Below, piece after piece: positions 13,118 through 55,898 of a stretch of DNA of 64,000 nt (positions are counted from its first letter, which is position 1; each line of letters starts with the position of its first letter). This stretch comes from an uncultured bacterium. Lineage in GTDB: Bacteria > Patescibacteriota > Minisyncoccia > Moranbacterales > UBA2206. The DNA lies in NCBI GenBank assembly GCA_903831805.1, contig CAIKZD010000009.1, forward strand, positions 72,786-136,785, in the 5' to 3' direction. The position numbers and the translations under genes are program-made. Below the pieces are notes generated by a model. That model saw only the letters and a list, made by a program, of their open reading frames with translations. It searched no databases and was not told where the DNA came from.

Positions 13118-14290
13118 ATGAAAATAGCATTTATCGGACAAAAAGGAATACCAGCCAAATTCGGCGGCGTAGAAACATACACCGAAAATGTGGCACTGCG
13201 GATGGCCAAAAAAGGACATACGGTTTTTGCCTATACCCGAAAGAACTATACTGATCCTAAGTTGCAAGAATATAGAGGTGTGAAGCTGATTAGCTTGCCG
13301 AGCATCCCGACGAAAAACTTGGACGCCATCAGTCACACTTTTTTGGCGACGGTGCATGCCATATTTCAAGATTATGATGTCATCCATTACCATTCTATCG
13401 GACCGAGTTCGCTCAGTTTTCTAATTAGAATTTTCAAACCCCGCACGGCGGTCGTTGCGATTTTCCAATGCCAGGATTACGCGCACAAAAAATGGGGCTG
13501 GTTTGCTAAAAAATATCTTAAGTTTTCCGAATTTCTGACTTGTAAGGTGCCTGATGTGACCATTGTGGTTTCCAGCATTCTCAAAAAATATGCCACCGAA
13601 GTATATCATCAAGAAACGGTCCTGATTCCCAATGGGACTGAAATAAGACACGTCGAAAAATCCGACTACCTCGCAAAATGGAATTTGCAAAAGGGTAGCT
13701 ATATCGTGTCTATCGGACGGTTGATCCGTCACAAAGGTGTGCATTACCTGATTGAAGCTTTCAAAAATTTGGAAGACAAACATTTGACGCGTGGAAAAAA
13801 ATTGGTGATTGTGGGCGATGGTTTTCACACGGATGATTATGTCAAAGAATTGAAAGATATGGCGCGTGGCCGAGAAAGCATTATTTTCACTGGCAGTCAA
13901 ACCGGAGAAGAGCTGGATCAGCTGTTTGCGCATAGTTATATGTTTGTGCAACCGAGTGAGTCGGAAGGCCTGTCTATGGCGCTTCTGGAAGCAATGGGAC
14001 ACGCCAAGGCGATTCTTTCCAGTGATATCAAGGAAAATAAGGAACCGTTAAATGAGGCTACGGCGGTGTTTTTCCGTTCGGGGGATGCGCGGGATTTGGA
14101 GGAAAAAATGGTTTTTCTCATCAATAATCCGGCGTTGGCCAAAGAGATGGGAGACGCGGCGATGCAAAAAGCGCGCGATGAATATAGTTGGGACACGATC
14201 GTGACGCAGATTGAAAAAGTTTATGCGGATGTTTTAGCTAAGAAAAAGAAAAGTATTTTCAAGACGAAACTGCATGGGAAAAGTATTTAA
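13118..14290 (+). CDS. glycosyltransferase family 4 (DUF1972-type N-terminus)
   Basis: MKIAFIGQKGIPAKFGGVETYTENVA N-terminus; C-terminal SESEGLSMALLEAMGHAKAILSSD. Confidence 0.8.
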   Translation: MKIAFIGQKGIPAKFGGVETYTENVALRMAKKGHTVFAYTRKNYTDPKLQEYRGVKLISLPSIPTKNLDAISHTFLATVHAIFQDYDVIHYHSIGPSSLSFLIRIFKPRTAVVAIFQCQDYAHKKWGWFAKKYLKFSEFLTCKVPDVTIVVSSILKKYATEVYHQETVLIPNGTEIRHVEKSDYLAKWNLQKGSYIVSIGRLIRHKGVHYLIEAFKNLEDKHLTRGKKLVIVGDGFHTDDYVKELKDMARGRESIIFTGSQTGEELDQLFAHSYMFVQPSESEGLSMALLEAMGHAKAILSSDIKENKEPLNEATAVFFRSGDARDLEEKMVFLINNPALAKEMGDAAMQKARDEYSWDTIVTQIEKVYADVLAKKKKSIFKTKLHGKSI

Positions 14291-15299
14291 CCTAAAAACA
14301 TTTTGGATAGTTTATATTATCGCCGTTGTTGCGATTTTTGTGATGAGCGTGAATGCCGGGCGGGTGTATGAATCCGTTACTGAGGTCTTGATCATTCCCA
14401 AAAGCGACATGGCGGTGAAAAATTCCGAACAAATCATTGCCAATCTAAGCCAGCTGCCCTACACCTTAGCTTTCTATGACCGCATGGTGGCGGAAAATGA
14501 AGACGCGGCCAACGCGGCGGCGACTGAATTGCCGGATTACAAAAAAAAGGCCGACTGGAATTCCCGGCTGAAAATTATGCGGGTCGGCACCAGTGGGATC
14601 TTTAAGATTATGACGACTGACCAGGATAGATATCAAGCTGAGGTTTTGAGCTCGGAGGCCGCCAAGACTTTGGTCAGCACCGTCGGACTGTATTATAATA
14701 TTGAAACGGATCTGGATGTGCGGATCATTGATCCGACCATCACCAATTATTCCGCTGGGGCGTTCGACTTTGTGTTATTTTTCGAAAGTATCAGCGCGGC
14801 TTTTTTGGGAATTTTTTTCATCTTTTTTGTTTCTCTTACAGTCTTCGAAGAGGAAGCCATACCACAAATCGCCCGTTCTAATTTTTTCGCTTGGCCGGAA
14901 AAAGAAAGTGCTACTGAGTTCTCCATTGAAAATGCGGTCGAAAAAGTTCCGACGGAAGTCAAAAAAGAATGGACATTGCCAGTAGAAGAAAAACCATATA
15001 CTGATTTCGTGAACACCACGAGAACCGCCAGTGCTCCGGCTAATCTACCGATTGCAGAAGACGAAATTTTTTCAGATAAGGCAGGCGAAGAAAAATCGGA
15101 GTCGGAGTTCGACTCCGGAGCTCCGGAGTCGAACTCCGATTTTTCGGTGTCGGAAATAAAAGTGGAAATTCCAAAAGAAGAGTCCGCTGCCGCTCCTGCT
15201 GAAGCTATGGCGGATGAAACAGAACTTCCGATAACGCGGGAGGCGACATCGGAGGAAGTGAAGGCCAGGTTAAATAAATTACTTTCTGGAAAATTATAA
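14274..15299 (+). CDS. Wzz-like chain-length determinant protein with repeat-containing C-terminal tail
   Basis: N-terminal TM, periplasmic-type domain, second TM (FVLFFESISAAFLGIFFIFFVSLTVF), then acidic low-complexity tail carrying a palindromic in-frame element. Confidence 0.5.
   Translation: MGKVFNLKTFWIVYIIAVVAIFVMSVNAGRVYESVTEVLIIPKSDMAVKNSEQIIANLSQLPYTLAFYDRMVAENEDAANAAATELPDYKKKADWNSRLKIMRVGTSGIFKIMTTDQDRYQAEVLSSEAAKTLVSTVGLYYNIETDLDVRIIDPTITNYSAGAFDFVLFFESISAAFLGIFFIFFVSLTVFEEEAIPQIARSNFFAWPEKESATEFSIENAVEKVPTEVKKEWTLPVEEKPYTDFVNTTRTASAPANLPIAEDEIFSDKAGEEKSESEFDSGAPESNSDFSVSEIKVEIPKEESAAAPAEAMADETELPITREATSEEVKARLNKLLSGKL
15092..15146. repeat. 55-bp near-perfect palindrome located in-frame inside CDS
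   Basis: AAAATCGGAGtcggagTTCGACTCCGGAG|CTCCGGAGTCGAACTCCGATTTT; encodes ESEFDSGAPESNSDF. The opposite strand encodes the same peptide. Confidence 0.8.
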
Positions 15300-16721: not shown

Positions 16722-16809
16722 CCTTTGTCATTCCCGCGTAGGCGGGGAATCTAGTGTAAAAACTTAGAAATTTGCGACTGGATTCCCGTATACACGGGAA
16801 TGACAAAGG
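16722..16809. repeat. MITE-like palindromic element, family C (TIR CCTTTGTCATTCCCG / CGGGAATGACAAAGG)
   Basis: 88 bp with perfect 15-bp terminal inverted repeats and two internal hairpins; related copies at 21987, 40396 and 43549. Confidence 0.8.
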
Positions 16810-16829
16810 AAGATGTTTTTATTAAAAGT

Positions 16830-16851
16830 GCCGGATAATGTTTCCGGTAAA
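16830..16851 (+). promoter_or_regulatory. conserved leader hairpin GCCGGAtAAtGTTTCCGGTAAA upstream of small ORF
   Basis: Hairpin CCGGA-n7-TCCGG about 32 nt upstream of the ATG at 16883; near-identical copy at 17576-17600 upstream of the ATG at 17633. Confidence 0.4.
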
Positions 16852-16882: not shown

Positions 16883-17314
16883 ATGCAAAGTTATATTTCT
16901 TATTCATTACTGGGTGTTGTGTGTGCAATTTTATTGCTGGCTTTAGTATTTGCAATCACGCTTTATGAGATCACAATTAAAGCGAATGCTAGCGTTTTTT
17001 CAAGGGCAGTTGTAACTTCAGAAAGTATTTTTTGGGCTCGATTCAGAGAGTTTATGGTGGTTGCTATGAAGACTATTATGTCTCGGGTTGAAATTGAAAT
17101 AGGGGATAAAATAGTTACTGGGTTGCTTCTGGAAAGATGGTCGGTTATAAACGACAGTTTAGTTGCAATAATTTATCCAAAAACCCTCGAGAGTGATTTG
17201 GATAAATTTTTCATTAGACTTCTTAACGCAGTGGCCGTCAGTGGCACTCCAAAACTTCACAATGATATAAGCATAGTTGCTAGACTCTTTACGAGTGGCT
17301 TTAAGTTTGTTTAA
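16883..17314 (+). CDS. small membrane protein, hypothetical
   Basis: 143 aa, N-terminal TM helix; GAGGAGAGAGAGA RBS-like tract upstream. Confidence 0.45.
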   Translation: MQSYISYSLLGVVCAILLLALVFAITLYEITIKANASVFSRAVVTSESIFWARFREFMVVAMKTIMSRVEIEIGDKIVTGLLLERWSVINDSLVAIIYPKTLESDLDKFFIRLLNAVAVSGTPKLHNDISIVARLFTSGFKFV

Positions 17315-17575
17315 GCCCCAAAAAATATCAAAGATCTGGTTTATTATTGGAGTGATGTCGGTCTTGAACAGGCCAAATGGAAAGAATTACTGATCCATTT
17401 GGGTGTTGAAAAGAGCAATAACGAGATAGTACAAGACCACCAAGATGAACAGGGCCACGAAGAAGAAATAAGCGACCATGAAACTTGATTGTATGATCTT
17501 GGTCCTAGGCGGAGTCTCTTTTTTCATTTCGCCAGAGGCTCATTCAACAAGAGAGACTCTGACGAGAAGGAAAAA

Positions 17576-17600
17576 CGCCGGACAAAGTTTCCGGTAAAAA
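17576..17600 (+). promoter_or_regulatory. second copy of conserved leader hairpin GCCGGAcAAaGTTTCCGGTAAAAAG
   Basis: Same motif and spacing to the start codon as at 16830. Confidence 0.4.
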
Positions 17601-19407: not shown

Positions 19408-19713
19408 ATGTTAGCTATCATAAAAACAGGCGGAAAACAATACAAAGTTGCCGTGGGAGATAAGATTAAGGTGGAAAAATTGGAAGGCGAAGCCGGTTCC
19501 AAGATTATTTTTTCCGAAGTGCTTTTTGTGGGGGATGAAAAAGATGTCAAAGTCGGCACACCCTTCCTGACTGGCGCCACCGTAGAAGGCACGATTTTGC
19601 AGACGGCTAAAGGTGATAAGGTAGTGGGCATGAAATTCAAAGCCAAGAAACGCTATCGCGTCAAATTCGGACATCGGCAGCTGTTCACGGAGGTGGAGAT
19701 TGTGAAGATATAG
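19408..19713 (+). CDS. rplU: 50S ribosomal protein bL21
   Basis: MLAIIKTGGKQYKVAVGDKIKVEKL...RYRVKFGHRQLFTEVEIVKI, typical L21. Confidence 0.95.
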   Translation: MLAIIKTGGKQYKVAVGDKIKVEKLEGEAGSKIIFSEVLFVGDEKDVKVGTPFLTGATVEGTILQTAKGDKVVGMKFKAKKRYRVKFGHRQLFTEVEIVKI

Positions 19714-19785
19714 AAACTTTTGAGAAAACAAAAAACGAGCCAAGAGGTTCGTTTTTTAGTTTGCAAAAATTATGATTGTGCGGAC

Positions 19786-19885
19786 TGTTCGTCGTAATCG
19801 ACGGACCGTTCGCTTGGCTCAAAGTAAGCGCGAACAGTCCGCTCAGACTACTGGATTTGTTTTTTCGCGAACGGTCCGCTCCTCA
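19786..19885. repeat. cluster of inverted repeats (GCGGACTGTTCG / CGAACAGTCCGC) acting as a bidirectional terminator region
   Basis: Four copies of a 12-mer in alternating orientation between convergent rplU and recR, with T-tract TTTGTTTTTTCG. Confidence 0.5.
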
Positions 19886-19887
19886 AA

Positions 19888-20475
19888 TTAGTTTCTATTC
19901 ATAATGGCCGAGCTCAGCGTGAGCTCATCCGCGTATTCGATGTCGCCGCCAGTGGAGAGGCCGCGGGCGAGGCGGGTAATTTTGACGCCTAGCGGTTTAA
20001 TGGCTCTCGCGACATAAAGGGAAGTGGCATCACCTTCTGTGGTGGGGTTCATGGCCAAAATTACTTCTTCGGTTTTTTCTGATTGGATGCGTCTTTCCAA
20101 TTCTGCCAGGCGCAGCTGATTCTGATTGGTGTTTTTCAAGCCGGAAAGCGTCCCGCCCAGAACATGATAAAGGCCGGTATATTTCTTAGTTCTTTCCATG
20201 GCCACGATATCCAGCGGTTCTTCCACCACGCAAATTTTTTTCTGGTCGCGGCTTTTGTCAAGACAAATGATGCATAGATTGTCTTCACTGATGTTAGCAC
20301 AGCGCTCGCAAAGACATAGGTTAACCTTCAGCTTAGCCAGCGTTTCGCCAAAATCCGCCAAGGCAATTTTGTCTTGCTTGAAAAGATAGAGCACTAAGCG
20401 TTCCGCCATCTTCGGGCCGACTGATGGCAGGGAAGCGAAATAGTCGATTAACTTTTTAAAACTTTTTGGATACAT
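19888..20475 (-). CDS. recR: recombination protein RecR
   Basis: HhH motif region, C4 zinc finger CERCANISEDNLCIIC, Toprim domain. Confidence 0.95.
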   Translation of the reverse strand: MYPKSFKKLIDYFASLPSVGPKMAERLVLYLFKQDKIALADFGETLAKLKVNLCLCERCANISEDNLCIICLDKSRDQKKICVVEEPLDIVAMERTKKYTGLYHVLGGTLSGLKNTNQNQLRLAELERRIQSEKTEEVILAMNPTTEGDATSLYVARAIKPLGVKITRLARGLSTGGDIEYADELTLSSAIMNRN

Positions 20476-20615
20476 AGATTAATAAATATCAAATTTCAAA
20501 TGACAAATGACAAATAAATTTCAAAATCAAAATGTCAAAAATTATTTTAGGAATTGGAAATTTATCATTTCTAATTTATTTGAAATTTGATATTTGTAAT
20601 TTGGAATTTCGCTTT
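20476..20615. repeat. AT-rich palindromic repeat, family D (CAAAT/ATTTG-rich)
   Basis: AAATAAATTTCAAAATCAAAATGTCAAAAATT... palindromic; near-identical block at 46541-46660 and a related one at 36080-36175. Confidence 0.6.
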
Positions 20616-21992
20616 TTATTCCGTGTGGACTTTTTCCAGCGATTTAAAGGTGGTGGAGTTTTCGTTGAAATAGAGGGACATGCGGCCGACGGGGCCATTT
20701 CGGTGTTTAGCGATGTGGACTTCGACGATGTTTTTGTTGGGCGTGTCGGGTTTTTCGCGATCTTCGCGGTAGAGGAACATGACAATGTCGGCGTCCTGCT
20801 CGATGGAACCGGATTCGCGGAGATCAGACAGTTTCGGAATTTGCGGGCTGCGGGATTCCACAGAACGAGATAACTGGGACAAAGCAATGATGGGAATGTT
20901 GAGCTCGCGGGCTAATTGTTTCAAGGCGCGGGAAATTTCGGACACTTCGTTCACACGATTGTCACCTCCGCCGCCGCGGCGGCCTTCCATGAGTTGTAGA
21001 TAGTCAATAATGATCACGCCGACATTATGTTCGGATTGCAAGCGCCGCGCCATCGTGCGCATTTCCATCACGTTGGCGCTTCCTGCGTCATCGATGTAGA
21101 TCGGAGCTTCTGAAAGCACGCCCATGGCGTCCCCGATGCGTTGGAAGTCATTATCGCCGTCACCGGTCTTGAGGCGGCCGGTCCTAAGACGCCACAAATC
21201 CACCCCTGATTCCGCGGCCAACATCCTGTCGACCAACTGGTCGGAACCCATTTCTAAAGAGAAAATGCCGACGGGAATTTTTTCTTTGACGGCGATCTGG
21301 CGGGCAAAATCCAGCGCCAGAGTGGTTTTTCCGATGGAAGGGCGCGCCGCCAGAATGATCAAATCTGATTTTTGGAAGCCGGCCAGAATGCCGTCCAGAT
21401 CAGGATAACCTGACGGCACGCCGCGCAACTTATGGTCGCCCTTATGCAACTCATCGATGCGATTGAAAGCGGATTCCAAAATGGATTTGATCGGCACGAA
21501 ATCTTGCTTGATGAATTTTTGTGAAACAGCAAATAGTTTTTGTTCGGCTTCGTCCAGAATTTTTTCCACGTCCTCGCCTTCTTCATAACCCAGACTGACA
21601 ATTTCTGAAGCCGCCAAAATCAATTTGCGCAGAGTAGATTTTTTTTGCACCACTTTGGCGTAGTGCACGATGTTAGCACTGGACGGCACGCTGTTCACCA
21701 GTTCAGTCAGATAACTGGAACCACCCACAGCGTCCAGTTTGTTTTTTTCCTCCAAGCGATTGGACAGCGACAGCACATCAATTGGCTCGCGTTTTTCATA
21801 CAGCTCAATCATGGCTTCATAAATGAGATTGTGATCATCGCGATAGAAATCACCTTGGCGAATTAAGTTGGCAATCTTGATCACTGCATCCTTATCCAGC
21901 ATCAAAGACCCTAAAACTGATTTTTCAGCTTCGATGTTTTGTGGCGGGAGCTTGATATTTTCGTTAGAGTTTTTGGCCATAAAAGTTGTCAT
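20616..21992 (-). CDS. dnaB: replicative DNA helicase DnaB
   Basis: PPQNIEAEKSVLG N-terminal motif, Walker A GARPSIGKTT, DnaB C-terminal helicase motifs. Confidence 0.95.
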   Translation of the reverse strand: MTTFMAKNSNENIKLPPQNIEAEKSVLGSLMLDKDAVIKIANLIRQGDFYRDDHNLIYEAMIELYEKREPIDVLSLSNRLEEKNKLDAVGGSSYLTELVNSVPSSANIVHYAKVVQKKSTLRKLILAASEIVSLGYEEGEDVEKILDEAEQKLFAVSQKFIKQDFVPIKSILESAFNRIDELHKGDHKLRGVPSGYPDLDGILAGFQKSDLIILAARPSIGKTTLALDFARQIAVKEKIPVGIFSLEMGSDQLVDRMLAAESGVDLWRLRTGRLKTGDGDNDFQRIGDAMGVLSEAPIYIDDAGSANVMEMRTMARRLQSEHNVGVIIIDYLQLMEGRRGGGGDNRVNEVSEISRALKQLARELNIPIIALSQLSRSVESRSPQIPKLSDLRESGSIEQDADIVMFLYREDREKPDTPNKNIVEVHIAKHRNGPVGRMSLYFNENSTTFKSLEKVHTE

Positions 21993-22036
21993 TCCCGCCC
22001 CCGCTTTCGCGAGGATAAACTACGGCGGGAATCTAG
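21987..22036. repeat. family C MITE-like half element overlapping the dnaB start codon
   Basis: TGTCATTCCCGCC-loop-GGCGGGAATCTAG; the TIR TGTCAT on the minus strand supplies the annotated ATG of dnaB. Confidence 0.6.
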
Positions 22037-22125
22037 TCATATAGCTTCAGTAATTCTACAGTCCATGTATTATATCAGGCTGACGCAGATGGTCAACTTG
22101 CGCTTTTGCACAAGTTATCCTGGAA

Positions 22126-23127
22126 TTATGCACACAGAATTGTTTCGATTTCCTCCAAACTTTCCGCCATGACTAATTTTCTTCGCAGTTCTGAGGCACC
22201 CGGAAAACCCTTGACGTACCAGGCCAAGTGCTTTCTCATTTCGAATTTGCCAGTGTCGCCTTTGTCGGCATAAATTAATTTGGCGTGTTCAAGCATAATG
22301 TTTTTGATGTGGGAGAAATCATAGGCTTCTCCTGTAGAAACAAAACATGCGCCGTCATTGAGATGGGTATTTTTAATGCTATTAAAAATCCACGGCTGGC
22401 CCCAGGCGCCGCGGGCGATGCCGAGACCGTCGAGAGTCGGATAATCATGTAAAGCTCTCACACCATCGGCCGCAGAATTGATGCCGCCATTGGCCAAAAC
22501 AATTTTGTCCGGAATAATTTTTTTTATTTCTTCGACAATCCTGAAATCTACTTGGCCAGAAAAACCGCCTTCGTATGTCCGGCCATGCACCATGACAGCC
22601 GAATAGGGGAGGTCTTTGGTATTTTCGATAAATTCCAAGGCCGTCATATCCCTTAAACCAGCCCGGATCTTAATCGACACTGGCAAATCTGTGTTATCAC
22701 ACACGGCGGAAATGATTTCGCGCGCTAATTCCTTTTGCGGCATCAAGGCGCAACCACTGCCATGCCCGAAAACTTTTTTGGCCGGACAGCCAAAATTGAT
22801 ATCGAGCCCGTCAATTCGCAACCCCTCCCCAGCCCTCCCCTGAGTACAGGGGAGGGGGCGAGAAAGAATGCGTGTCGCCTTGGCAAAATGCTGCGGGTCT
22901 TTGCCAAAAAGCTGCACCACGTATGGTCGCTCGCTGGCATTGAATTTGACCAACTCTAAAGTTTTTTCCGGCTTAAAAAAAAGCGCGGAAACGCTGGCCA
23001 TTTCACTGTACACCACATCCGCCCCGTAGCGCCGACAAATTTCCCGGAAAGCGCTGTCCGTAATGCCGGCCATAGGAGCAAGAGCGAGAATAGGTTTATT
23101 GAGTTGAAACCAAAAATTATTTTTCAT
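22126..23127 (-). CDS. dus: tRNA-dihydrouridine synthase (contains in-frame 38-bp palindromic insertion)
   Basis: LAPMAGITD, DINFGCPAKKV and FMN-binding TIM-barrel motifs; the insertion encodes PLPCTQGRAGEGL. Confidence 0.9.
   Translation of the reverse strand: MKNNFWFQLNKPILALAPMAGITDSAFREICRRYGADVVYSEMASVSALFFKPEKTLELVKFNASERPYVVQLFGKDPQHFAKATRILSRPLPCTQGRAGEGLRIDGLDINFGCPAKKVFGHGSGCALMPQKELAREIISAVCDNTDLPVSIKIRAGLRDMTALEFIENTKDLPYSAVMVHGRTYEGGFSGQVDFRIVEEIKKIIPDKIVLANGGINSAADGVRALHDYPTLDGLGIARGAWGQPWIFNSIKNTHLNDGACFVSTGEAYDFSHIKNIMLEHAKLIYADKGDTGKFEMRKHLAWYVKGFPGASELRRKLVMAESLEEIETILCA
22822..22859. repeat. GC-rich palindromic element, family E, copy 1 (in-frame in dus)
   Basis: CCCCTCCCCAGCCCTCCCCTGAGTACAGGGGAGGGGG; reverse complement matches copies at 31373 and 31978. 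Confidence 0.85.
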
Positions 23128-23147
23128 GAAACAAAAACTCCCTCGAT

Positions 23148-23305
23148 GTCGTCATCCTGAGCGGAGTGATTCGCCGTTAAGGCGAAGAACGCAGTCGAAG
23201 GATCTGCGTTCCATTATTGCTAGTAATATTATATTCACAAAACCACTGGTAATACAAGGCAGATTCTTCGACTTCGCCCGAGTACGGACTTCGCTCAGAA
23301 TGACA
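23148..23305. mobile_element. MITE-like element, family A (about 157 bp, TGTCATCCTGAGCG...CGCTCAGAATGACA)
   Basis: Long imperfect palindrome with terminal inverted repeats; copies at 41119, 45638 and 55059. Confidence 0.85.
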
Positions 23306-23313
23306 GACTATTT

Positions 23314-23487
23314 TTATCCCAAAATCTTTATTCCTTCCTCCGTCTCTTCAATTTCATAGCCTAGCTCAGTGATAGCTTTTTTGAGCGAAGCGAGTTTTTC
23401 TTCGGTCGATTTGCAATCGTTTTCGCACGCACAATCTTCTTCTTTTTCATCATCACATCCACAATGATCGCAGCCACAGTGTCCCAT
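23314..23487 (-). CDS. 57-aa Cys-rich acidic small protein (MGHCGCDHCGCDDEKEEDCACENDCKS...), translationally coupled to cysS
   Basis: ATG at 23487 lies 1 nt after the cysS stop; 8 Cys in the first 26 residues, then an amphipathic helix; not in ORF track (<60 aa). Confidence 0.4.
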   Translation of the reverse strand: MGHCGCDHCGCDDEKEEDCACENDCKSTEEKLASLKKAITELGYEIEETEEGIKILG

Positions 23488-23488
23488 A

Positions 23489-24928
23489 TTATTTTTTGGT
23501 TATTTTATAATTATTATCTTTTAAATCTTCAATGGTATAGCCGGCTTTTTCGATGGTTGCGCGCAGCTCATCCGAAGCTTGGAAATCTTTATTGTGCCGG
23601 GCAGCTTTCCTTTCCTCAGCTAAAGCAACTACCTCTTCGGGAAGCGTTAAAATTTCTTCGCTCATAACTAAGCCCAAAACTTTATTGATCTTTTCCCAAA
23701 ACTTCAAAATATTTTCTGCCGTGGCGGCGCTCAAGTTTTCTTCAGATAAAAATTTATTCGTTTCGCTGATGAGTTCGTATATGACCGCCAAAGCCAGAGG
23801 AGTGTTAAGGTCGTCGTCCATAGCTTCTTCAAAACGTCTTTCGTAGATGTGGACGAAATCAATTTCATCTCCTGTAGAGATGCGATTAATCGCATCTCTA
23901 CTTTGAATATTTTTCAAATTAGCTACCCAAGCGGAAATTTTTTGCAGGTTACTTTTGGCTTGTTCTAGAGCACTTGGCGTATAATCCATAACGCTGCGGT
24001 AATGAGAACTCAAAATCCAGAGCCGCATGACCATTGGGTCATATCTTTGCAAAATATCTTTGATGCTCGTGTGGTTGTTTTTAGATTTAGACATCTTGCT
24101 GCCATCAATATTCACCATACTCCAAAGCAGCCAATAATTAGCCATTTTTTTACCTAAGTAAGCTTCGCTTTGCGCCACTTCGTTTTCATTATGAGGAAAA
24201 ATATTTTCATTGCCACCTCCATGTATATCGAAAGTATCTTGCCCGAGCAAGTCATATGACATAACCGAACATTCGATATGCCAGCCAGGATAACCCACGC
24301 TCCAAGGGCTTGGCCATTTCAGAAGGTGATTTTGATCAGCCTTGATCCAAAGGGCGAAATCCAATGGATTCTTCTTTTCCGGATTTATTTCTACCCGTGC
24401 GCCAGACTCCAGTTCATCTGTTTTTCTGCCTGAAAGTTTTCCGTATGCAGGAAATTTTTCTACCGAAAAATATACCGAGCCGTTCGATTCATAAGCAAAT
24501 TCTTTTTCAATTAATTTCTCGACAAAATTGATTATTTGCGTGATGTACTGAGTCGGTCGAGGATTGAAGATGGCTGGCTTGATATTGAGCGCCTGGAAAT
24601 CTTCTTCGGCTGACTCGATATATTTCTCAACCACTTCCATCGGGTCGATTCTTTCTGCCTGGGCTTTTTTTTGAATTTTATCTTCGCCAATTTCGCCGTC
24701 ATCAACCAAATGTCCAACATCGGTGTAGTTCATGATGTAGCGCACTTCATAACCGGAATATTCCAAATATCGTCTAATCACATCCATAGAAACATAGCCA
24801 CGGCCATGCCCTAGATGACAATGATCGTAGACCGTTGGACCACAAACATACATCCCGACTTTACCAGGATTGATCGGTTTGAATTCTTCTTTAGTTTTAG
24901 TGAGGGTGTTATATAGTTTTAAAACCAT
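23489..24928 (-). CDS. cysS: cysteinyl-tRNA synthetase
   Basis: HLGHGRGY (HIGH-like) and KMSKSKNN (KMSKS) motifs; class I aaRS architecture. Confidence 0.95.
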   Translation of the reverse strand: MVLKLYNTLTKTKEEFKPINPGKVGMYVCGPTVYDHCHLGHGRGYVSMDVIRRYLEYSGYEVRYIMNYTDVGHLVDDGEIGEDKIQKKAQAERIDPMEVVEKYIESAEEDFQALNIKPAIFNPRPTQYITQIINFVEKLIEKEFAYESNGSVYFSVEKFPAYGKLSGRKTDELESGARVEINPEKKNPLDFALWIKADQNHLLKWPSPWSVGYPGWHIECSVMSYDLLGQDTFDIHGGGNENIFPHNENEVAQSEAYLGKKMANYWLLWSMVNIDGSKMSKSKNNHTSIKDILQRYDPMVMRLWILSSHYRSVMDYTPSALEQAKSNLQKISAWVANLKNIQSRDAINRISTGDEIDFVHIYERRFEEAMDDDLNTPLALAVIYELISETNKFLSEENLSAATAENILKFWEKINKVLGLVMSEEILTLPEEVVALAEERKAARHNKDFQASDELRATIEKAGYTIEDLKDNNYKITKK

Positions 24929-25827
24929 TTTTTTGCTTTAAACAAAATTATCGTGATAACAGCAATAAAGAGCATGATGCCGATATGGATCCAGAAAGCC
25001 GACGGGTGAGTGTGGAAGGGGATATCGGTGCTCATGGACATGATGTTGGAATAGACGGTGAGCGGTAGGAGGATGGCCGAGAAAAGCGTGAGCACTTTCA
25101 TGGTCATGTCCAGCTTGTTGGAGAGCAAGGAATTATTGGTCGCTTCCAAGGATTCAATAGTTTCTTTGGCGGATTCCAGGTTGTTCCAGATGCGGATGTT
25201 AGTGCCGATAAGATCTTGGAAATAGGGCTTGAGTTCCGGTTCGATCAGGCGAAAATCTTTTTGCGCCAAGGATTCTAGGACGGAACGTTGCGGCTTCATG
25301 GTGCGGCGGAAATTCAAAATGTCCCGTTTGACCAGTGAAATTTCAAACACCATCTCTTTTTCATGGTCGGCAAAAATTTCCGTTTCAATGTAGTCCAGTT
25401 TCTCCGAGACATGATCCAATTTGGGAAAACAAGTCTCCAAAAGCATCTCCACGATGAAGCGCATCAGCGCACCGGGGGAACTGGCCATATACAATTCTCG
25501 CTTGGATTTATCATTCGCCAGCTCATTGAAGAAATCCGTCAATTGAAAAATATCTTTGTCATGCGAAGTGATGAGGACGTTCTCGCAAATCACGATATCA
25601 ATTTCAGCGGCGTAGGTCGTTTTGATCTTTGTATCAAAGAGGGGAATGTGGATGGACATGAAAAGACAGTTGTCATATTGCGCGGCTTTGGGGCGCAAAG
25701 TCGGGGTGGAAAACTCTTCAATAATGAGCGGATGGATCTTGTATTTTTCTTGGATAGTGAGAACATCCTCGGCGTTGGGTTCCTTGAAATAATGCCAGAC
25801 TAATTTTTTGTGTTGGACGGTTTGCAT
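24919..25827 (-). CDS. CorA-like divalent metal ion transporter (degenerate GMN motif)
   Basis: Cytoplasmic alpha/beta domain plus two C-terminal TM helices; the segment YSNIMSMST replaces the canonical YGMNF. Confidence 0.55.
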   Translation of the reverse strand: MQTVQHKKLVWHYFKEPNAEDVLTIQEKYKIHPLIIEEFSTPTLRPKAAQYDNCLFMSIHIPLFDTKIKTTYAAEIDIVICENVLITSHDKDIFQLTDFFNELANDKSKRELYMASSPGALMRFIVEMLLETCFPKLDHVSEKLDYIETEIFADHEKEMVFEISLVKRDILNFRRTMKPQRSVLESLAQKDFRLIEPELKPYFQDLIGTNIRIWNNLESAKETIESLEATNNSLLSNKLDMTMKVLTLFSAILLPLTVYSNIMSMSTDIPFHTHPSAFWIHIGIMLFIAVITIILFKAKKWF

Positions 25828-30339: not shown

Positions 30340-32358
30340 TTACGTGATAGAGATCGGGTCGATATCGATTATCCAGCCGGTACCCAATTTTTTGAGTTCA
30401 ACTATTAATTTTTCGGGAATAAATTTGCTTTTACATTTGATGATTATTTGTCTTCTGAATCGGCCTCTGATTTTCGGGACGAAAGCCTCTTGCGCTTCGG
30501 TCACTTTGGTATCCGGTATGCTTTGCATGACAGTGGAAACTTTTTCCGTTTCAACTTCAGTTTTCCGGGCATCATAATCCTGAAAAACCAATTTAACGAG
30601 ACGTCCGAAGGGTGGAAAGGAGAGGGCTTTTCTTTCGGCTATTTCAAACTGAAAAAAAGCTTCATAATTTCGTTCCGCACTGAACCTGATTGATTTGTTT
30701 TCCGGTTGATAAGTCTGGATCACCACACTGCCGGGAAACTTCGCGCCGGGTCTGGCCACGCGGCCGGAGACTTGCACGATATTTTCATAAAACTTTTCTC
30801 CAGCCGAAAAATCAGGGATAGAAAGAGCATTATCCGTATCTATTATACCAATCAACGCGACATTCGGCAAATCCCAGCCCTTGCTGATCATTTGCGTCCC
30901 GATCAAAATATCGATCTGGCGCGCGGAAAATTCTTGGTATATTTTGGCTTGATACGCCGCTTCTTTGGCGACCTGACTATCGAGGCGCGCCACGCGAGCG
31001 CTCGGGAAAAGATTTTTGATTTCTTTTTCCACTTTCTGTGTGCCCAGTCCTACATTTTCAAAAATAATGCCCTTACATTTCGAACATTGCGGTGTGATGG
31101 ACGTTTTATAGGCACAATGCAAACAGCGGTAGTGACCCTTTTGATCATAAGCCAGCGAACGGTCGCATTTCGGGCATTTTAAAACAGTCTTACAGCTCTT
31201 GCAAACCGAAAAGCTGCTCATGCCCTGGCGATTGATGAAGAGAATCGTCTGCTGGTCATATTTCAGCGCGTAAGCAATTTCACTTTTTAGCTTTTTACTT
31301 ATACATGAGTAATTCTTCGCCCAGCGCTCTTTTTTCATGTCGACGATGACGGTTTGTGGAGAATTTGTATTGCCCCCTCCCTTGTAATCAGGGGAGGGCT
31401 GGGGAGGGGTTGTTAGGTGGGGCAAATCCAAAAGATTCATCTCTTTTTCATTTTTTGCTCGCCAATATGTTTCCACTGCCGGCGTAGCGCTTCCGCGCAC
31501 GATCGGACATTTATTAATCTCCGCCAACTTTTCTGCTACGGTGCGCGCATCATAACGTGGATTCATATCCCATTGTTTGTAGGACATATCCTGCTCTTCA
31601 TCGATAATGATGAGTCCCATTTTTTGGAACGGGGCAAACACCGCCATGCGTGTGCCGATAATGATTTTGGCCTGGCCGGATTTAACACGTTGCCAATAGC
31701 CATAGAACTGCCCCTTGGTGATATTACTACTGAGCATTACGATTTCTTCTGGCGGAAAATATTGTCCATAACGCTCCAGTGCTTGCGGCGTCAAAGTTTT
31801 TTCCGGCACTAGAATCAAAAATTGCGCATCAGGCTTTTTCTTTTTAATGGCTAAAATTGAATGAATATATACCTCAGTCTTACCTGATCCGGCCGGACCG
31901 AAAAGCAAGTATTTTGTATTTTGTTTTGCAATTTTATTTACGGCTTCTTGTTGCTCTTCCGTGAGGACAATACTCACGCCCCCTCTCCTGTACTCGGGAG
32001 GGGGTTGGGGAGAGGGTCTGCGGGTTTTCGTCCGCGCCGGCACAAAACTTTTCATCACAATCCCAAGCGGGGATATATAGTAATCTGAAATAAACTTAGC
32101 CAACTCAATCTGATCTTCCGTCAAAAAATCTTCTTCCAAAACTTCTTCGATTTTTTTTAATTCAATATTACCCAATCTTTCAAAATCTTTCCGCACCCCC
32201 AAAACAATTCCTTCAACCGTGCGGCGGAAAAGGGGAATGGACACGAGAGTGCCAACTGACAATTTCTTTTCTGATAGATAGGAAAAAGACTGACTGCCGC
32301 TCATGGGCAATTTGGTCAGCGGCACGATGTCGAGAATGAATTTTTTGGATTTAGGCAT
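30340..32358 (-). CDS. priA: primosomal protein N' (PriA helicase) with two in-frame palindromic insertions
   Basis: Walker A GPAGSGKTEV, DEAH-like IIDEEQD, Cys4-Cys4 zinc-binding region (CKSCKT...CPKCD...CLHC...CSKC). The insertions encode PSPQPPPEYRRGG and PPQPSPDYKGGGN. Confidence 0.95.
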   Translation of the reverse strand: MPKSKKFILDIVPLTKLPMSGSQSFSYLSEKKLSVGTLVSIPLFRRTVEGIVLGVRKDFERLGNIELKKIEEVLEEDFLTEDQIELAKFISDYYISPLGIVMKSFVPARTKTRRPSPQPPPEYRRGGVSIVLTEEQQEAVNKIAKQNTKYLLFGPAGSGKTEVYIHSILAIKKKKPDAQFLILVPEKTLTPQALERYGQYFPPEEIVMLSSNITKGQFYGYWQRVKSGQAKIIIGTRMAVFAPFQKMGLIIIDEEQDMSYKQWDMNPRYDARTVAEKLAEINKCPIVRGSATPAVETYWRAKNEKEMNLLDLPHLTTPPQPSPDYKGGGNTNSPQTVIVDMKKERWAKNYSCISKKLKSEIAYALKYDQQTILFINRQGMSSFSVCKSCKTVLKCPKCDRSLAYDQKGHYRCLHCAYKTSITPQCSKCKGIIFENVGLGTQKVEKEIKNLFPSARVARLDSQVAKEAAYQAKIYQEFSARQIDILIGTQMISKGWDLPNVALIGIIDTDNALSIPDFSAGEKFYENIVQVSGRVARPGAKFPGSVVIQTYQPENKSIRFSAERNYEAFFQFEIAERKALSFPPFGRLVKLVFQDYDARKTEVETEKVSTVMQSIPDTKVTEAQEAFVPKIRGRFRRQIIIKCKSKFIPEKLIVELKKLGTGWIIDIDPISIT
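31373..31409. repeat. family E GC-rich palindromic element, copy 2 (in-frame in priA)
   Basis: CCCCCTCCCTTGTAATCAGGGGAGGGCTGGGGAGGGG. Confidence 0.85.
31978..32017. repeat. family E GC-rich palindromic element, copy 3 (in-frame in priA)
   Basis: CGCCCCCTCTCCTGTACTCGGGAGGGGGTTGGGGAGAGGG. Confidence 0.85.
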
Positions 32359-32612
32359 GTGTCCATTGTATCATTTTGAGCTATTTAAACAATTGACATT
32401 ATTCTGGTGATTTTTTTATGTTGAACCTTTACATGCAGTCTCAATATGCTACCATGCCAACAAGGAGGGGCGCAGAAGAAGCAGGAGATTGCCTATTTAT
32501 TAGGACTTGCCGGATGATGAAGCTATGCGGCAACAACCCGAAAACCATCTGGGTGGCTATAAATACAAGCGAAATCACTTGCGCACGCTCATCCTTTCTC
32601 GTTGTTCCGCTG

Positions 32613-32684
32613 AGAGATATAGTTTAGTTTGGTCAAAACACGGCCTGTCACGCCTTGCCGCAGGTTCGAACCCTGCTACCTCTC
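32613..32684 (+). tRNA. degenerate tRNA-like gene (anticodon loop CTGTCAC, GTC/Asp-like)
   Basis: Perfect T-arm GCAGG-TTCGAAC-CCTGC; anticodon loop identical to bacterial tRNA-Asp; acceptor AGAGATA/TACCTCT has one mismatch; anticodon stem has one mismatch; variable loop only 3 nt; no encoded CCA. Followed by its own terminator. Confidence 0.35.
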
Positions 32685-32693
32685 AGTTTCCCC

Positions 32694-32730
32694 ATGGCGG
32701 AGTTTCACAACTGAAACCCGCCATATTTTT
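32694..32730 (+). terminator. rho-independent terminator after tRNA-like gene
   Basis: ATGGCGGAGTTTCA-caac-TGAAACCCGCCAT followed by ATTTTT. Confidence 0.6.
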
Positions 32731-32767
32731 ATATCCAAATTTGAACACTGACGGCATTAATGCTAGA

Positions 32768-33664
32768 ATGGAAATAGTAAAAAACCTTTATAAAATGGAA
32801 GAACTAAAAATAATTCTAAATTCTTGGCAGTTTAATCTGTCGTTGTCGCTTATCCTTCTTATTGTGTTTATGCAGTCATATAAGCTGGCTGTTAAGGAAG
32901 TTGAAAAAGATGGAGTAGCGACCATTATCCTTCAGGTAGTGGCGGGGCTTAGTATTCTTTTTTTGTTGCCATTCTTTGCGTTCACTTTCCCAAATAATAC
33001 TGCAGCATATCTTTTTACTTTACTGGCGATAATATTTTATACCCTAAACGACAGGATTCAAACAACTGTCAGGAAGAATCTTGATGTCTCCGTATATTCA
33101 ATCCTGGACCAAATAGCCAGAGTTTTTTTAGTGGTTTATGGGATTATTATTTTCAAGGAACCGCTAGTCGCCGCCAAATTGCTTGGCGCCGGGTTGATCT
33201 TGGCCGGGAATGTTTTCTTATTTTATCGTAAAGGAAAATTAAAAATCAATAGGTACGTAGTGCTAAATGTTTTGGCGACTTTTCTGCTCGCCACAGCGAC
33301 CATAATAGATATTGATATCTCAAAACAATTCAATCTGCCTTTCTATATCATGATAACTTTGATTATTCCGGCCTTATTCATATATCTTGTGGAGAGACAT
33401 TCCTCGAAAGAGATTCTGAAAGAATTCAATTCTAAAAGAAGAAAATATTATCTAATTACCGGAATTTCTTGGGGCGTTCTAATACTCGCCATAATCAGAG
33501 CCTTCCAAACTTCAGAAGTAACCTTCATCGCGCCGCTCTTGGCTACCTCGGTCCTACTGAATGTTTTTGTAGCCTCGATAATTCACAAGGAAAAGAGTAA
33601 TTTAACGAGAAAAATAATAGCTGCGGTCATTGTTGTTTTGGGAGTTTTTGTGATGACTCAGTAA
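32768..33664 (+). CDS. 10-TM DMT/EamA-like membrane transporter, hypothetical
   Basis: Start placed at MEIVKNLYKMEEL, downstream of the tRNA-like gene and terminator (ORF-track start at 32507 reads through them); two 5-TM halves of about 299 aa total. Confidence 0.4.
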   Translation: MEIVKNLYKMEELKIILNSWQFNLSLSLILLIVFMQSYKLAVKEVEKDGVATIILQVVAGLSILFLLPFFAFTFPNNTAAYLFTLLAIIFYTLNDRIQTTVRKNLDVSVYSILDQIARVFLVVYGIIIFKEPLVAAKLLGAGLILAGNVFLFYRKGKLKINRYVVLNVLATFLLATATIIDIDISKQFNLPFYIMITLIIPALFIYLVERHSSKEILKEFNSKRRKYYLITGISWGVLILAIIRAFQTSEVTFIAPLLATSVLLNVFVASIIHKEKSNLTRKIIAAVIVVLGVFVMTQ

Positions 33665-35533: not shown

Positions 35534-36076
35534 ATGAAACGAAAAATTTTTATCAGTTTGAACATTCCTGAACAAGACCGCAAAAGGTTGGCACGCTTGG
35601 CCGAAAAGTGGCATGATTTACCGGTCAAATGGACGCGCGCAGCCAATTTGCACATCACTTTGGCTTTTTTAGGTTTCGTGCTGGAAACTGATTTGCCGGA
35701 AATTTGCCAAAAAGTGGCTGAGGCCGCCCAAAAAAACACTATTTTTGATCTGGAATTTGATGAAATCAGCCTTTTCCCAAGTGCGGATGAACCGCGGGCT
35801 GTGGCGCTCATCGGCCGACCCAGCGAAGAATTGAAAAATTTAGTCAATTCATTGGAAGATACTTTAGACATTGCTTATGCCCCTAGAAAATCTTTTCGCG
35901 CACATGTGACACTCGGACGGATCCGCAAAAACAAATGGGCGGAATTGGAAACCGAACCGCGCATCTTGGAAAAATTTGCCATCAGCTTGCCGGTGGACGC
36001 CGTGGACATCATGGCCAGTGACTTTGACGGCGGGGAAGGGGAGTATGCCGTGCTGGAAAGCTGCCCACTGGTATAA
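35534..36076 (+). CDS. thpR: RNA 2',3'-cyclic phosphodiesterase (2H family, LigT/ThpR)
   Basis: Two H-x-T/S-x motifs: HITLAFLG and HVTLGRI. Confidence 0.8.
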   Translation: MKRKIFISLNIPEQDRKRLARLAEKWHDLPVKWTRAANLHITLAFLGFVLETDLPEICQKVAEAAQKNTIFDLEFDEISLFPSADEPRAVALIGRPSEELKNLVNSLEDTLDIAYAPRKSFRAHVTLGRIRKNKWAELETEPRILEKFAISLPVDAVDIMASDFDGGEGEYAVLESCPLV

Positions 36077-36079
36077 TCT

Positions 36080-36175
36080 TAAAAAATAATTTTCAATTTT
36101 CAATTTTCAATTTTCAATGAATTTTCAAATGTTCTAGTCATCAATTGAAAATTATTTTATTGAAAATTGAATGAG
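36080..36175. repeat. AT-rich palindromic/tandem repeat (TTTTCAAT x4 ... ATTGAAAATT), family D-like
   Basis: Tandem octamer repeats with inverted copies downstream. Confidence 0.55.
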
Positions 36176-36177
36176 CA

Positions 36178-40309: not shown

Positions 40310-40395
40310 AATATTTTCTGAAAATGTATTTTTGATTAAAATAATTTATTCGTTCTACTTTTTTATTATTTTTGTGAAAATAGAAAGTGAGTTAT

Positions 40396-40441
40396 GAATC
40401 AATTATCTTATACACTAGATTCCTGCCTACACAAGAATGAC
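40396..40441. repeat. family C MITE-like half element
   Basis: ACACTAGATTCCTGCCTACACAAGAATGACA matches the right half of the 43549 element. Confidence 0.55.
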
Positions 40442-43521: not shown

Positions 43522-43548
43522 TAGTTGTCTTGTATATTATACTTAACT

Positions 43549-46660: not shown

Positions 46661-46671
46661 GGGCTTTTTTA

Positions 46672-54242: not shown

Positions 54243-55898
54243 TTAGTTTTCTGCTTGCGCGGCCGCTAACCACACCCACAAAAATCCCAAGAATATCCCT
54301 GCGTTAAACAGATTGAAAACAACCAATCCGAACCATCCAACTATTATAAAGAGATGCCATGTTTTTGACAATTGATTGGTAGCGTAAAAATAATGTTTGA
54401 CGGCCTGGAAAATAATATAGCCTAAGAGAAAAACTAGCGCCAAAAAACCTATGATACCCGCCCCAAGCCAGGTTTCTAAAAATATATTAGACGAATTAAG
54501 GAACACTCCGCGTCCATCGCGTCCCAGCAGCGGACCAATACTCCCCCAACCGATGCCAGCTACCGGATGATTCTTGATTTCAGCCCAAGACTTTTGATAG
54601 ATTTGCGAGCGCACGTTTACGTTTGGATCGGGACGTAAAATTTCTGTCACAAATTTCCCCGCCGTTTTTTCTTTCTCAATATCTTCCAGGTTGATATGGC
54701 GACAGCTATATTTTTCTAACTCCTCTGTGTTATCTATTTTTTCCGGCAAATTCTCATCCTTGTCGCAACTCACCGTAATTTTTTGCTCGCCTGTGCCGGT
54801 CGACTGTACGCGATTGAAAAGTTGAAAATTGCTCAGATGGAAAACATAAATAACAAGAATAGCTACAACCAAAGAAGAAACTATTTTCAACTTCAGAAAA
54901 CTGGTTTCTTTCCATCGCCAATTTTTAAACTTCAGATCAGTGAAGAAAATCAAAACGAAAATAATATACGTCGCCATGGCCGCCAGCCAAGCGGAGCGGG
55001 AAACGGTGAGAATGAGAAGGATGTATGAAATGGTCAGCAGGACATATAAAAATATTTCTGTCATCCTGAGCGAAATGACGACGCGATAGCGGAGGAATGC
55101 AGTCGAAGGATCTGCGATATATTCATCACTAGTAGTATTCAATGGCAGATTCTTCGACTTCGCTACGCTACGCTCAGAATGACAATTGCATAGCAATGCG
55201 TAAATGAGCGTTATCACTAGTACGACAAAAGCGCCTAACCAATCCGCTTCCGTAAATGTGGCATTCGGCCGCCCGAGCATCGCTTCGAAAGACTGACCAT
55301 TATGTAGAAAGATAATATTTTGCCACAGGCCATACAACATCACAACTATGGCCGAGCTCAAGAAAAATGGCACGGTTCTTTTGGCGTCGGCAGTAGTCTG
55401 GATATAATTTCTGACTAAGAAATACAGAATGACGAACGTGATGAAAATTATTTCCAATTTTAAACTTGCCATTTTGTCCGGCGAAAAAATTGCGCCCAGC
55501 AATCCGCCAATGGCCATCAAGATCACGGCATAATTTGGAATTTTCAGTTTAGCTAATTTGAAATTCAAGCGGCCACTCACTAGCCGCGCTAAAATCGCTA
55601 CCACTAAAATTGCCCCGATGAATTGATACGGCCGAATAGTAAGACCCAAACTCACCGGTGCTAAATTGATATTTTCCAGCGGCACCATCCCGCAAAAAAG
55701 CAAAAACGCCCAACTCGGCCGCCACAGCGCAAAAGCCAGCGCCAAAATCGAGAAAAAAACAAAATCCCCCAATTGCAGCGGGATTACTTGGAAATTACTA
55801 AGGATAATCAAAAAGAAAACCACAAAAACATTCACCAAAACCAGCCAGTTTTTGGGCTTGTTAAGGTTGTTGACAAATTGCTGCAAATAACTAATCAT
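54243..55898 (-). CDS. O-antigen ligase/polymerase-like membrane protein carrying an in-frame 126-bp MITE insertion
   Basis: Polytopic; ligase-like SSNIFLETWLGAGIIG motif. Residues about 238-279 (CHSERSVAKSKNLPLNTTSDEYIADPSTAFLRYRVVISLRMT) are encoded by the family A element. Confidence 0.6.
   Translation of the reverse strand: MISYLQQFVNNLNKPKNWLVLVNVFVVFFLIILSNFQVIPLQLGDFVFFSILALAFALWRPSWAFLLFCGMVPLENINLAPVSLGLTIRPYQFIGAILVVAILARLVSGRLNFKLAKLKIPNYAVILMAIGGLLGAIFSPDKMASLKLEIIFITFVILYFLVRNYIQTTADAKRTVPFFLSSAIVVMLYGLWQNIIFLHNGQSFEAMLGRPNATFTEADWLGAFVVLVITLIYALLCNCHSERSVAKSKNLPLNTTSDEYIADPSTAFLRYRVVISLRMTEIFLYVLLTISYILLILTVSRSAWLAAMATYIIFVLIFFTDLKFKNWRWKETSFLKLKIVSSLVVAILVIYVFHLSNFQLFNRVQSTGTGEQKITVSCDKDENLPEKIDNTEELEKYSCRHINLEDIEKEKTAGKFVTEILRPDPNVNVRSQIYQKSWAEIKNHPVAGIGWGSIGPLLGRDGRGVFLNSSNIFLETWLGAGIIGFLALVFLLGYIIFQAVKHYFYATNQLSKTWHLFIIVGWFGLVVFNLFNAGIFLGFLWVWLAAAQAEN
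55059..55184. mobile_element. family A MITE-like element, shortened copy (126 bp = 42 codons) inside CDS
   Basis: TGTCATCCTGAGCGAAATGACGACGCG...CGCTACGCTACGCTCAGAATGACA; no stop codon in the host frame. Confidence 0.8.

Follow-up and report, generated by a model that had tools for sequence, protein, structure and literature searches.

The closest described counterparts of the repeats reported here are the NTS hairpins of Neisseria and their nuclease SsnA. Chenal et al. 2025 (PMC11893778) gave the Neisseria NTS as CGTCATTCCCGCGMAVGCGGGAATCYRG and also defined a degenerate Ssn-related motif (SRM), with the pattern HGTCWYN(0-2)YYVSBRHN(0-5)WNVSBRGN(0-2)RNCYNB. SsnA was shown to bind the hairpin only as single-stranded DNA (ssDNA) and to nick it a few nucleotides 5′ of GTCAT; it binds DNA and not RNA, its recognition is sequence-specific, and the GTC-W-Y, stem and C positions are critical for cleavage and binding (PMC11893778). 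In the same study, residues Y6, Y17 and E64 of SsnA were mutated, and Rickettsia, Wolbachia and Neisseria were listed as SRM-rich taxa (PMC11893778). In-frame insertion into many unrelated genes is also known for the Rickettsia palindromic elements (RPEs; PMC10969869). Here we describe repeats from a 64-kb stretch of a Candidatus Moranbacteria genome (Patescibacteria, candidate phyla radiation (CPR)), a reduced, small-genome organism; the whole stretch is referred to as the window. We propose, with a probability of about 0.6, that three repeat families of the window, A, B and C, are non-autonomous doublets of SRM, resembling MITEs (transposable elements of the miniature inverted-repeat kind), whose spread is linked to a small GIY-YIG nuclease of the Ssn type. 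The pairing of motif and nuclease is already published; what appears to be new, in the literature searched, is the patescibacterial host, the doublet families, the non-canonical arms of families A and B and the in-frame hot spots.

The PriA and Wzy-like proteins of the window have best matches named Candidatus Moranbacteria, Moraniibacteriota or Parcubacteria, and stretches identical to the window were found in several metagenomes. All repeat copies were located by comparing the window with itself (Table 1). With ~1.6 kb in total, they account for 2.5% of the window and for roughly 18% of the DNA in it that is non-coding. TGTCAT/ATGACA was counted 62 times, where 100 dinucleotide shuffles gave 29.2 +/- 6.0. 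A first-pass annotation of the window had listed at least six families of palindromic repeats, A to F. The copies it placed are all present, far above chance, and A, C-type arms, B-type arms and D also occur outside the window, so that these are indeed multicopy and not unique local sequence. Some of its descriptions have to be amended. Three family A copies are about 157 bp long, as stated, with 78-88% identity, and the fourth, at 55059, is shorter (127 bp) and about 67% identical. Family C, given as four copies, comprises two full copies, a single long-form arm at 21987 and a decayed copy, the one placed at 40396. The family B copy at 42539, the three AT-rich copies of family D and the three GC-rich hairpins of family E are present as described. 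Finally, F had been presented as a 55-bp perfect palindrome; it is perfect only over its central 38 bp within an imperfect 56-bp span, and neither the window nor about 600 kb of related loci contained another copy. Being single-copy, F is a lone palindrome for which the word family is not justified. Families D and E are separate from A, B and C and lack the SRM terminus; their lifestyle is similar, and our data give no grounds for proposing an enzyme for either.

Elements of families A, B and C share one plan, with two inverted arms and GTCAT outermost. Each arm opens with Y-GTCAT and a stem, continues with a loop that varies or with a nested hairpin, and closes with the complementary stem and ATC. 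Family C arms, GTCATTCCCG(C/T)G..GGGAATC, are near-identical to the Neisseria NTS. Family B has two inverted arms of the form GTCATTGCGAG..GCAATC, and family A has GTCATCCTGAGCG..CGAAGGATC as its 5′ arm and GTCATTCTGAGCG..CGAAGAATC, in reverse complement, as its 3′ arm. All 15 arms of the window begin with GTCAT, preceded by T or, in one copy, by C; all fit GTC-W-Y followed by a stem and C, and each ends with the complementary stem and then ATC. The earlier grouping of A, B and C into one superfamily based on TGTCAT termini holds, and the three families have TGTCAT...ATGACA ends save for the copy at 23148, which begins with CGTCAT. Whole elements fold as long ssDNA hairpins (z -4.6 to -8.1), and the fold of family C copy 2 displays both arm hairpins. 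In the nested hairpins pairing is kept and the sequence is free, since 54 family A 5′ arms hold 16 different stems of at least 4 bp.

The published SRM pattern matches the window three times, against 0.07 expected by shuffling, and all three matches are family C arms, among them both arms of copy 1. We also used a generalised arm detector, checked against shuffles, that requires GTC-W-Y, a 5-nt stem, the complementary stem and C; a stricter version with a 7-nt stem misses the A and B arms. The generalised arm is found 23 times in the window versus 5.5 +/- 2.5 times in shuffled sequence, and 15 of the 23 hits are the A, B and C arms. We regard it as quite likely that the arms of all three families belong to the SRM class. 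The 14-mer TGTCATCCTGAGCG alone is too short for specificity; since most of its matches in viral contigs run on into ..CGAAGGATC, this arm type is widespread.

We then consider the gene. The family A pattern, scanned across the GTDB genome collection, gave 40 exact matches, or 40 loci. In one of them, from the metagenome-assembled genome (MAG) nzgw506 (L138), a small GIY-YIG gene ends ~10 nt or less from the family A copy; in another (L130), a GIY-YIG gene stands between GTCATCCCCGCGAAGGCGGGGATC and an inverted GTTATTCCCGCGAAGGCGGGAATC. This gene family counts at least 6,935 members, and many lie on ~1-kb contigs. The closest relative in this family, the 93-aa protein P0123 on locus L167, is followed by a full family A copy that begins 8 nt past its stop codon. 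Contigs with P0123 come from JGI samples 3300022555 and 3300029798, which are also the source of the window's contigs. In locus L167, GC is 0.439 and tetranucleotide composition correlates with that of the window at r = 0.984; the locus shares 78-84% identity with the nzgw506 locus L138, as compared with 72-85% between the window and the nzgw506 locus L128. Because samples, composition and divergence from nzgw506 all agree, P0123 is very probably encoded by the window's own organism. Aligned with a 94-aa open reading frame (ORF) of N. gonorrhoeae, the CPR protein shows 48% identity (BLASTP E = 4e-30); we take this ORF as the SsnA orthologue because it has Y6, Y17 and E64 and canonical NTS flanks. 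The counterparts of these three residues are conserved in the CPR protein, which belongs to Pfam PF01541 and is single-domain, with 85-97 aa in the bracketed genes. Searches of NCBIfam and PDB sequences with this protein gave weak generic GIY-YIG matches only. We consider it likely that the organism encodes a cognate Ssn homologue. The N. gonorrhoeae sequence used for comparison was taken from the PLSDB records NZ_CP119140.1 and NZ_CP119142.1 (L254), which at ~2.17 Mb are filed as plasmids and are actually chromosomes.

The association was also examined in the reverse direction, by scoring the generalised arm in 80 metagenomic loci, each with a homologue of the 93-aa GIY-YIG protein at its centre. 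Of the 80 loci, 71 have an arm no more than 300 bp away from the GIY-YIG gene and 57 have one on both sides; arms number 5.16 per kb close to the gene and 0.56 per kb further off. In the usual layout, a forward arm stands ~60 nt upstream and an inverted arm ~30 nt downstream of the gene. The commonest stems beside these genes are ATTCC, which is that of family C, and ATTCT and ATCCT, which belong to the two arms of family A; arms of the B type are present in four of the 80 loci, at more than 300 bp from the gene. A GIY-YIG gene in L249 has the family C arm TGTCATTCCCGTGAAAACGGGAATCCAG, unaltered, on either flank. As the arms bracket the gene and bracket a spacer alike, elements A, B and C have the geometry of the gene-carrying unit, with a short spacer replacing the gene. 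The first-pass annotation had pointed to an insertion sequence (IS) of the IS200/IS605 (TnpA/TnpB) or IS630-like type as the mobiliser, and it is instead a GIY-YIG gene that the arms bracket. GIY-YIG is the only class of gene found between such termini, with whole genomes outside the search.

Two observations on arms and genes are worth adding. A recurrent long-form arm (21987-22035 in the window, and L180, L197, L217, L227, L231, L242 and L252) is composed of GTCAT, a stem, an inner hairpin, an RTAAACTNC-like motif, the complementary stem and ATC. It adjoins several ssn homologues, and its RTAAACTNC-like motif is conserved and unpaired, which suggests that this single-stranded motif may be an extra recognition element. 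In the homologue P0171, the called N-terminal extension (..VILSLGEAQAKDL..) is a translated upstream GTCATCCTGAGC-type arm, and gene callers therefore run into the repeats.

The 40 family A loci belong mostly to Moraniibacteriota and Parcubacteria MAGs, with a few in Oscillospiraceae/Clostridia, and up to 10 copies are found in one MAG. The composite of both arms and a conserved GCAGTCGAAGGATCTGC..AGATTCTTCGAC core is present in Oscillospiraceae, Clostridia and Faecousia MAGs of ~58% GC (L134, L137, L144, L149, L159 and L161), and the element plan is therefore common to several phyla. In viral contigs, the family A composite pattern has no match and only three ssn homologues were found; there is thus no sign of a phage vector. 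Turnover was assessed by comparison with L128 of nzgw506, which is syntenic with window positions 19478-25497 (6 kb) and offers five spacer or loop sites. Presence or absence of an element differs at all five. The RecR-DnaB spacer, which holds a family D copy in the window, is a 13-nt spacer without element in L128. Likewise, L128 has neither the 79-bp family C arm insertion directly upstream of the DnaB start, nor the 33-nt in-frame family E insertion inside Dus, nor the family A copy in the spacer upstream of Dus. Conversely, the L21-RecR spacer holds a family A copy in L128 and none in the window. A contig that is 99.7% identical to the window (L003) differs from it by scaffold gaps only, with no insertion polymorphism.

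All copies lying in frame within genes (the three of family E, family A copy 4 and the palindrome F) keep the reading frame; the first-pass annotation had not noted this setting. In PriA, Dus and the Wzy-like protein, the inserts add 11-43 residues and range from 33-49 nt for family E to 127 nt for family A. In alignments of PriA (n=60) and Wzy-like proteins (n=60), the insert positions are hypervariable and the same insert is seen only in the closest relatives; PriA orthologues with less than about 70% identity either lack the E2 and E3 sites or differ there. In other Moranbacteria, the same loops hold CHSERS..SLRMT (A-like), VIASEAKQS..ARNDI (B-like) or IFNFQFSIFN (AT-rich), and some orthologues are empty. 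Judging from these alignments, residues 113-129 and 316-329 of PriA and 238-280 of the Wzy-like protein are recurrent hot spots of putative insertion or retention. The elements also affect the calling of starts. The element end ATGACA (21987-21992 and 41119-41124) gives an upstream in-frame ATG to DnaB and NifU, and the mechanically called ORFs therefore begin inside the repeat (MTTF-MAKNS.. and MTTYI-MIYSK..). The native starts of both genes lie 9-15 nt downstream, which the comparison with L128 confirms for DnaB. For annotation, this means that element ends yield false upstream starts and that the inserts in PriA, Dus and the Wzy-like protein could pass for lineage-specific protein features.

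With respect to known systems, the likeness is strongest with NTS/SRM and Ssn. The arm plan with GTCAT, hairpin and C is the same, up to near-identity for family C, and here too a small single-domain GIY-YIG gene with 48% identity to SsnA is bracketed by or abuts the arms, in a small-genome, symbiont-type host like the listed SRM-rich taxa. Our case differs in its host, Patescibacteria, as the text of the Ssn paper names neither this phylum nor any Candidatus taxon (PMC11893778). It also differs in the other stems, conserved GAGCG..CGAAG and long nested hairpins of the A and B arms, in the compact inverted doublets of 82-157 bp, some of them in frame, and in that the homologue is known here from its sequence alone. 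The Neisseria intergenic mosaic elements (NIMEs) are, like ours, short segments bounded by inverted hairpins (dRS3/NTS-type) that cluster between genes; they combine RS units of 50-150 bp into mosaic arrays, whereas here single discrete units occupy spacers. The dRS3 repeat is also the target of an IS110-type phage integrase, and no IS110-type transposase was found in the window. Repetitive extragenic palindromes (REP) and their doublets (REPIN), with the REP-associated tyrosine transposase (RAYT), likewise form inverted hairpin doublets that fold into one long hairpin without target duplication. They too have a cognate single-copy gene bracketed by the same hairpins, and their recognition is thought to take place on ssDNA. 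They have an HUH/Y1 fold and GTAG, whereas we find GIY-YIG and GTCAT; no RAYT gene was seen here, with no genome-wide RAYT search having been made. RPEs share with our repeats the presence of several palindromic families in frame at tolerated positions of housekeeping genes in a small-genome symbiont; the host phylum is another one, the likeness is one of insertion pattern, and our in-frame copies measure 33-49 nt (E) and 127 nt (A). MITEs derived from DDE elements (Correia, Nezha) are comparably small and multicopy, have terminal inverted repeats and act on neighbouring start codons and possibly promoters; unlike them, our elements end in structured hairpins and not in simple inverted repeats for transposase binding, they lack target-site duplications, and a related DDE insertion sequence was not found.

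From these data, the following mechanism can be proposed. The Moranbacteria Ssn homologue, encoded outside the window beside a family A copy, would bind and nick the arms in the manner of Neisseria SsnA. Arms extruded in ssDNA during replication or DNA uptake would be its substrate, and nicking together with host repair or recombination could lead to gain, loss and spread of elements. Insertion of elements would take place in very short intergenic spacers and leave no target duplication, and in-frame survivors would be confined to tolerant loops and linkers of proteins. A common mobiliser acting in trans had been suggested in the first-pass annotation: a trans-acting protein is plausible because the cognate enzyme has no gene in the window, and it is uncertain that one enzyme serves all three families, as the stems differ and SsnA recognition is sequence-specific. 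We place the chance that Ssn is the mobilising agent, and not merely a reader of the sites, somewhat below even. A bolder extension, which we consider rather unlikely, is that arm-ssn-arm units are autonomous mobile elements of an uncatalogued class in which a GIY-YIG ssDNA nuclease replaces the transposase, that A, B and C are their MITE-like derivatives, and that repeated insertion remodels loops of PriA, Dus and the Wzy-like protein. If true, such elements would be a source of protein innovation in ultra-small genomes.

Several points weigh against the proposal that A, B and C spread through Ssn. To our knowledge, transposition of any SRM element has never been shown, and we know of no covalent intermediate of SsnA and of no chemistry of excision or integration by Ssn. 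A six-frame motif scan found no GIY-YIG ORF in the window, and a GIY-YIG gene lies within 8 kb in only two of the 40 family A loci (L138 and L130); for P0123, we infer the assignment of the L167 contig to the organism. The published SRM pattern misses all arms of families A and B, one of the four arms in the full family C copies and the long-form arm at 21987, their stems or loops falling outside it, and the A and B arms would be tied to Ssn by their common flanks and their presence beside ssn homologues. If SsnA-like recognition is sequence-specific, one enzyme may not serve three stem classes. SsnA moreover cuts the forward strand of one hairpin alone (PMC11893778). In the turnover comparison, L128 is only about 80% identical to the window, and the comparison shows presence or absence but not the exact ends or the direction of gain or loss. 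Family A orientation relative to neighbouring genes is 15 versus 9, which is not significant on crude gene calls, and since a strictly lagging-strand ssDNA mechanism might predict a bias, its lack also counts on this side.

Among other explanations, the elements could be classical MITEs, that is IS deletion derivatives moved in trans by a DDE (IS630-like) or Y1/HUH (IS200/IS605, RAYT) transposase recognising the TGTCAT ends. Such an origin would give small multicopy elements that end in inverted repeats and vary in presence, as these do, and IS200/IS605 and RAYT systems do use hairpins and make no target duplication. Nevertheless, we consider this very unlikely. Target-site duplications, whose search at copy ends the first-pass annotation had called for, are absent: direct repeats of 4-6 nt flank none of 45 family A copies, those of 3 nt flank two (1.2 expected) and those of 2 nt none, and TA-TA flanks are found in none of the 45 either, which leaves a DDE-type MITE unsupported. 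As had been noted before, the window encodes no transposase domain, according to Pfam scans of 50 ORFs and precomputed Pfam for the remaining genes at 50.4-63 kb. Furthermore, REP elements of RAYT systems carry a 5′ GTAG, whereas the 5′ motif here is GTCAT, the SRM signature, and in 71 of 80 loci it is GIY-YIG genes that the arms bracket; short of a genome-wide search for such transposases, IS200/IS605 or RAYT genes are not the ones associated with the arms. Least credible of all is a role as structured RNA elements (riboregulators, processing or stability signals) conserved in operon transcripts. The elements do lie in operons, a few nucleotides from start or stop codons, their nested hairpins covary, and their folds are far more stable than those of shuffled sequence. 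However, Rfam is silent for A, B and C both at the gathering threshold and at E-values up to 1, none is called an intrinsic terminator, and the elements occur in both orientations relative to genes and also in frame in coding regions; the same arm motif stands on both strands, and SsnA binds DNA and not RNA.

A more serious alternative, which we nonetheless judge improbable as a full account, is that the arms are domesticated and currently immobile recognition sites at which Ssn cuts incoming ssDNA, thereby tuning transformation or recombination, and that copies change by recombination and slippage. Patescibacteria do take up DNA, and the gap in excision and integration chemistry mentioned above speaks for such sites, as does the clustering of elements around genes and in spacers, which recalls NTS and NIMEs. 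It is also the only role of SsnA and NTS shown by experiment (PMC11893778). Immobile sites, however, fit poorly with near-identical composites at non-homologous positions in one genome, in other genomes and in another phylum, with the differences between relatives at five of five compared sites, and with the existence of a decayed copy (40363-40442). The in-frame copies, with different families in the same loops, rather look like repeated de novo insertion filtered by selection. Such a domesticated role can be compatible with selfish spread. The reading of A, B and C as mobile SRM doublets would extend the Ssn/SRM system to the CPR, episymbionts with reduced genomes in which mobile and repetitive DNA is barely described; our search for literature on MITEs or palindromic repeats in Patescibacteria found nothing relevant. 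It also bears on a question left by the Ssn paper, namely whether SRM are only recognition marks or are multiplied through the nuclease. Doublets with the geometry of a gene unit, fast turnover between relatives and in-frame landing in essential genes are all relevant to it.

Table 1. Repeats and palindromes of the window, with their setting and, for copies in frame, the residues concerned
Feature	Position (nt)	Strand	Setting	Residues	Remarks
Family A copy 1	23148-23306	+	CysRS-Dus spacer		starts with CGTCAT
Family A copy 2	41119-41275	+	occupies IscS-NifU spacer		ssDNA fold -41.4 kcal/mol, z -8.1
Family A copy 3	45638-45794	+	tRNA-Gln on one side, amino-acid-kinase gene on the other		
Family A copy 4	55059-55185	+	within Wzy_C/O-antigen-ligase-like gene 54243..55898 (-)	238-280	127 bp, both arms intact; insert present only in closest Wzy-like orthologues
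Family B	42539-42663		occupies Rrf2-IscS spacer		one copy in window; ssDNA fold -33.4 kcal/mol, z -7.1
Family C copy 1	16724-16807 (first-pass: 16722..16809)		between DUF4012 gene and ORF143		ssDNA fold -24.1 kcal/mol, z -7.4
Family C copy 1, arms	16726-16754, 16778-16805	+, -			inverted, GTCAT outermost, 23-nt spacer
Family C copy 2	43548-43629				89% identity with copy 1, opposite orientation; left arm TGTCATTCCCGTGAAAACGGGAATCCAG
Family C single long-form arm	21987-22035 (within 79-bp insertion 21984-22062)	+	directly 5′ of native DnaB start		inner hairpin and motif ATAAACT
Family C decayed copy	40363-40442				right arm still recognisable (40412-40442); left arm mutated, AT-rich
Family D copy 1	20477-20612		occupies RecR-DnaB spacer		AT-rich palindrome
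Family D copy 2	46550-46696				73% identity with D copy 1
Family D-like copy 3	36075-36200		LigT-WecG intergenic		AT-rich palindrome; relatives in other Moraniibacteriota loci
Family E copy 1 (E1)	22819-22859		in frame in Dus	90-103	GC-rich hairpin CCCTCCCCT..AGGGGAGGG; absent from L128 Dus orthologue
Family E copy 2 (E2)	31372-31412		in frame in PriA (30340-32358)	316-329	GC-rich hairpin; between Pfam domains
Family E copy 3 (E3)	31974-32022		in frame in PriA (30340-32358)	113-129	GC-rich hairpin; linker between 3′-binding and helicase domains
Palindrome F	15090-15145		acidic low-complexity tail of 341-aa ORF 14274..15299, function unassigned	273-291	near-palindrome, perfect 38-bp core 15102-15139

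Other structured sequences were observed in the window. A hammerhead-type ribozyme was considered for the CUGAGCG..CGAAGG core and rejected, as the core does not fit the consensus and Rfam is silent. The L21-RecR spacer (19757-19889) contains two interleaved inverted repeats, GCGGACTGTTCG/CGAACAGTCCGC and GGACCGTTCGC/GCGAACGGTCCGC, of which no other copy was found. A 28-bp direct repeat (16824-16851 and 17571-17598, 86% identical), each copy with a CCGGA-N7-TCCGG hairpin and terminator-like calls, brackets a small unknown ORF (16883..17314).

As regards RNA genes, a tRNA-Ile with anticodon GAU (45294-45475, minus strand; Rfam tRNA, 53 bits) is interrupted by ~110 nt of extra sequence at the position of the variable loop. 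This insert contains a long inverted repeat of its own and has no relative in the window or in the fetched loci, and the gene is not called by ARAGORN; the insert could be an intron, an inserted palindrome or the mark of a pseudogene. The window opens with the 3′ part of a 16S rRNA gene (1-944, ending at 944), which is followed by protein-coding genes from 1377 onward and by no 23S gene, and the rRNA genes are therefore unlinked here. Finally, tRNA-Asp (32612-32685) lies within a mechanically called 385-aa ORF (32507-33664) whose EamA match begins at residue 251, so that the real start of this gene is downstream of the tRNA.

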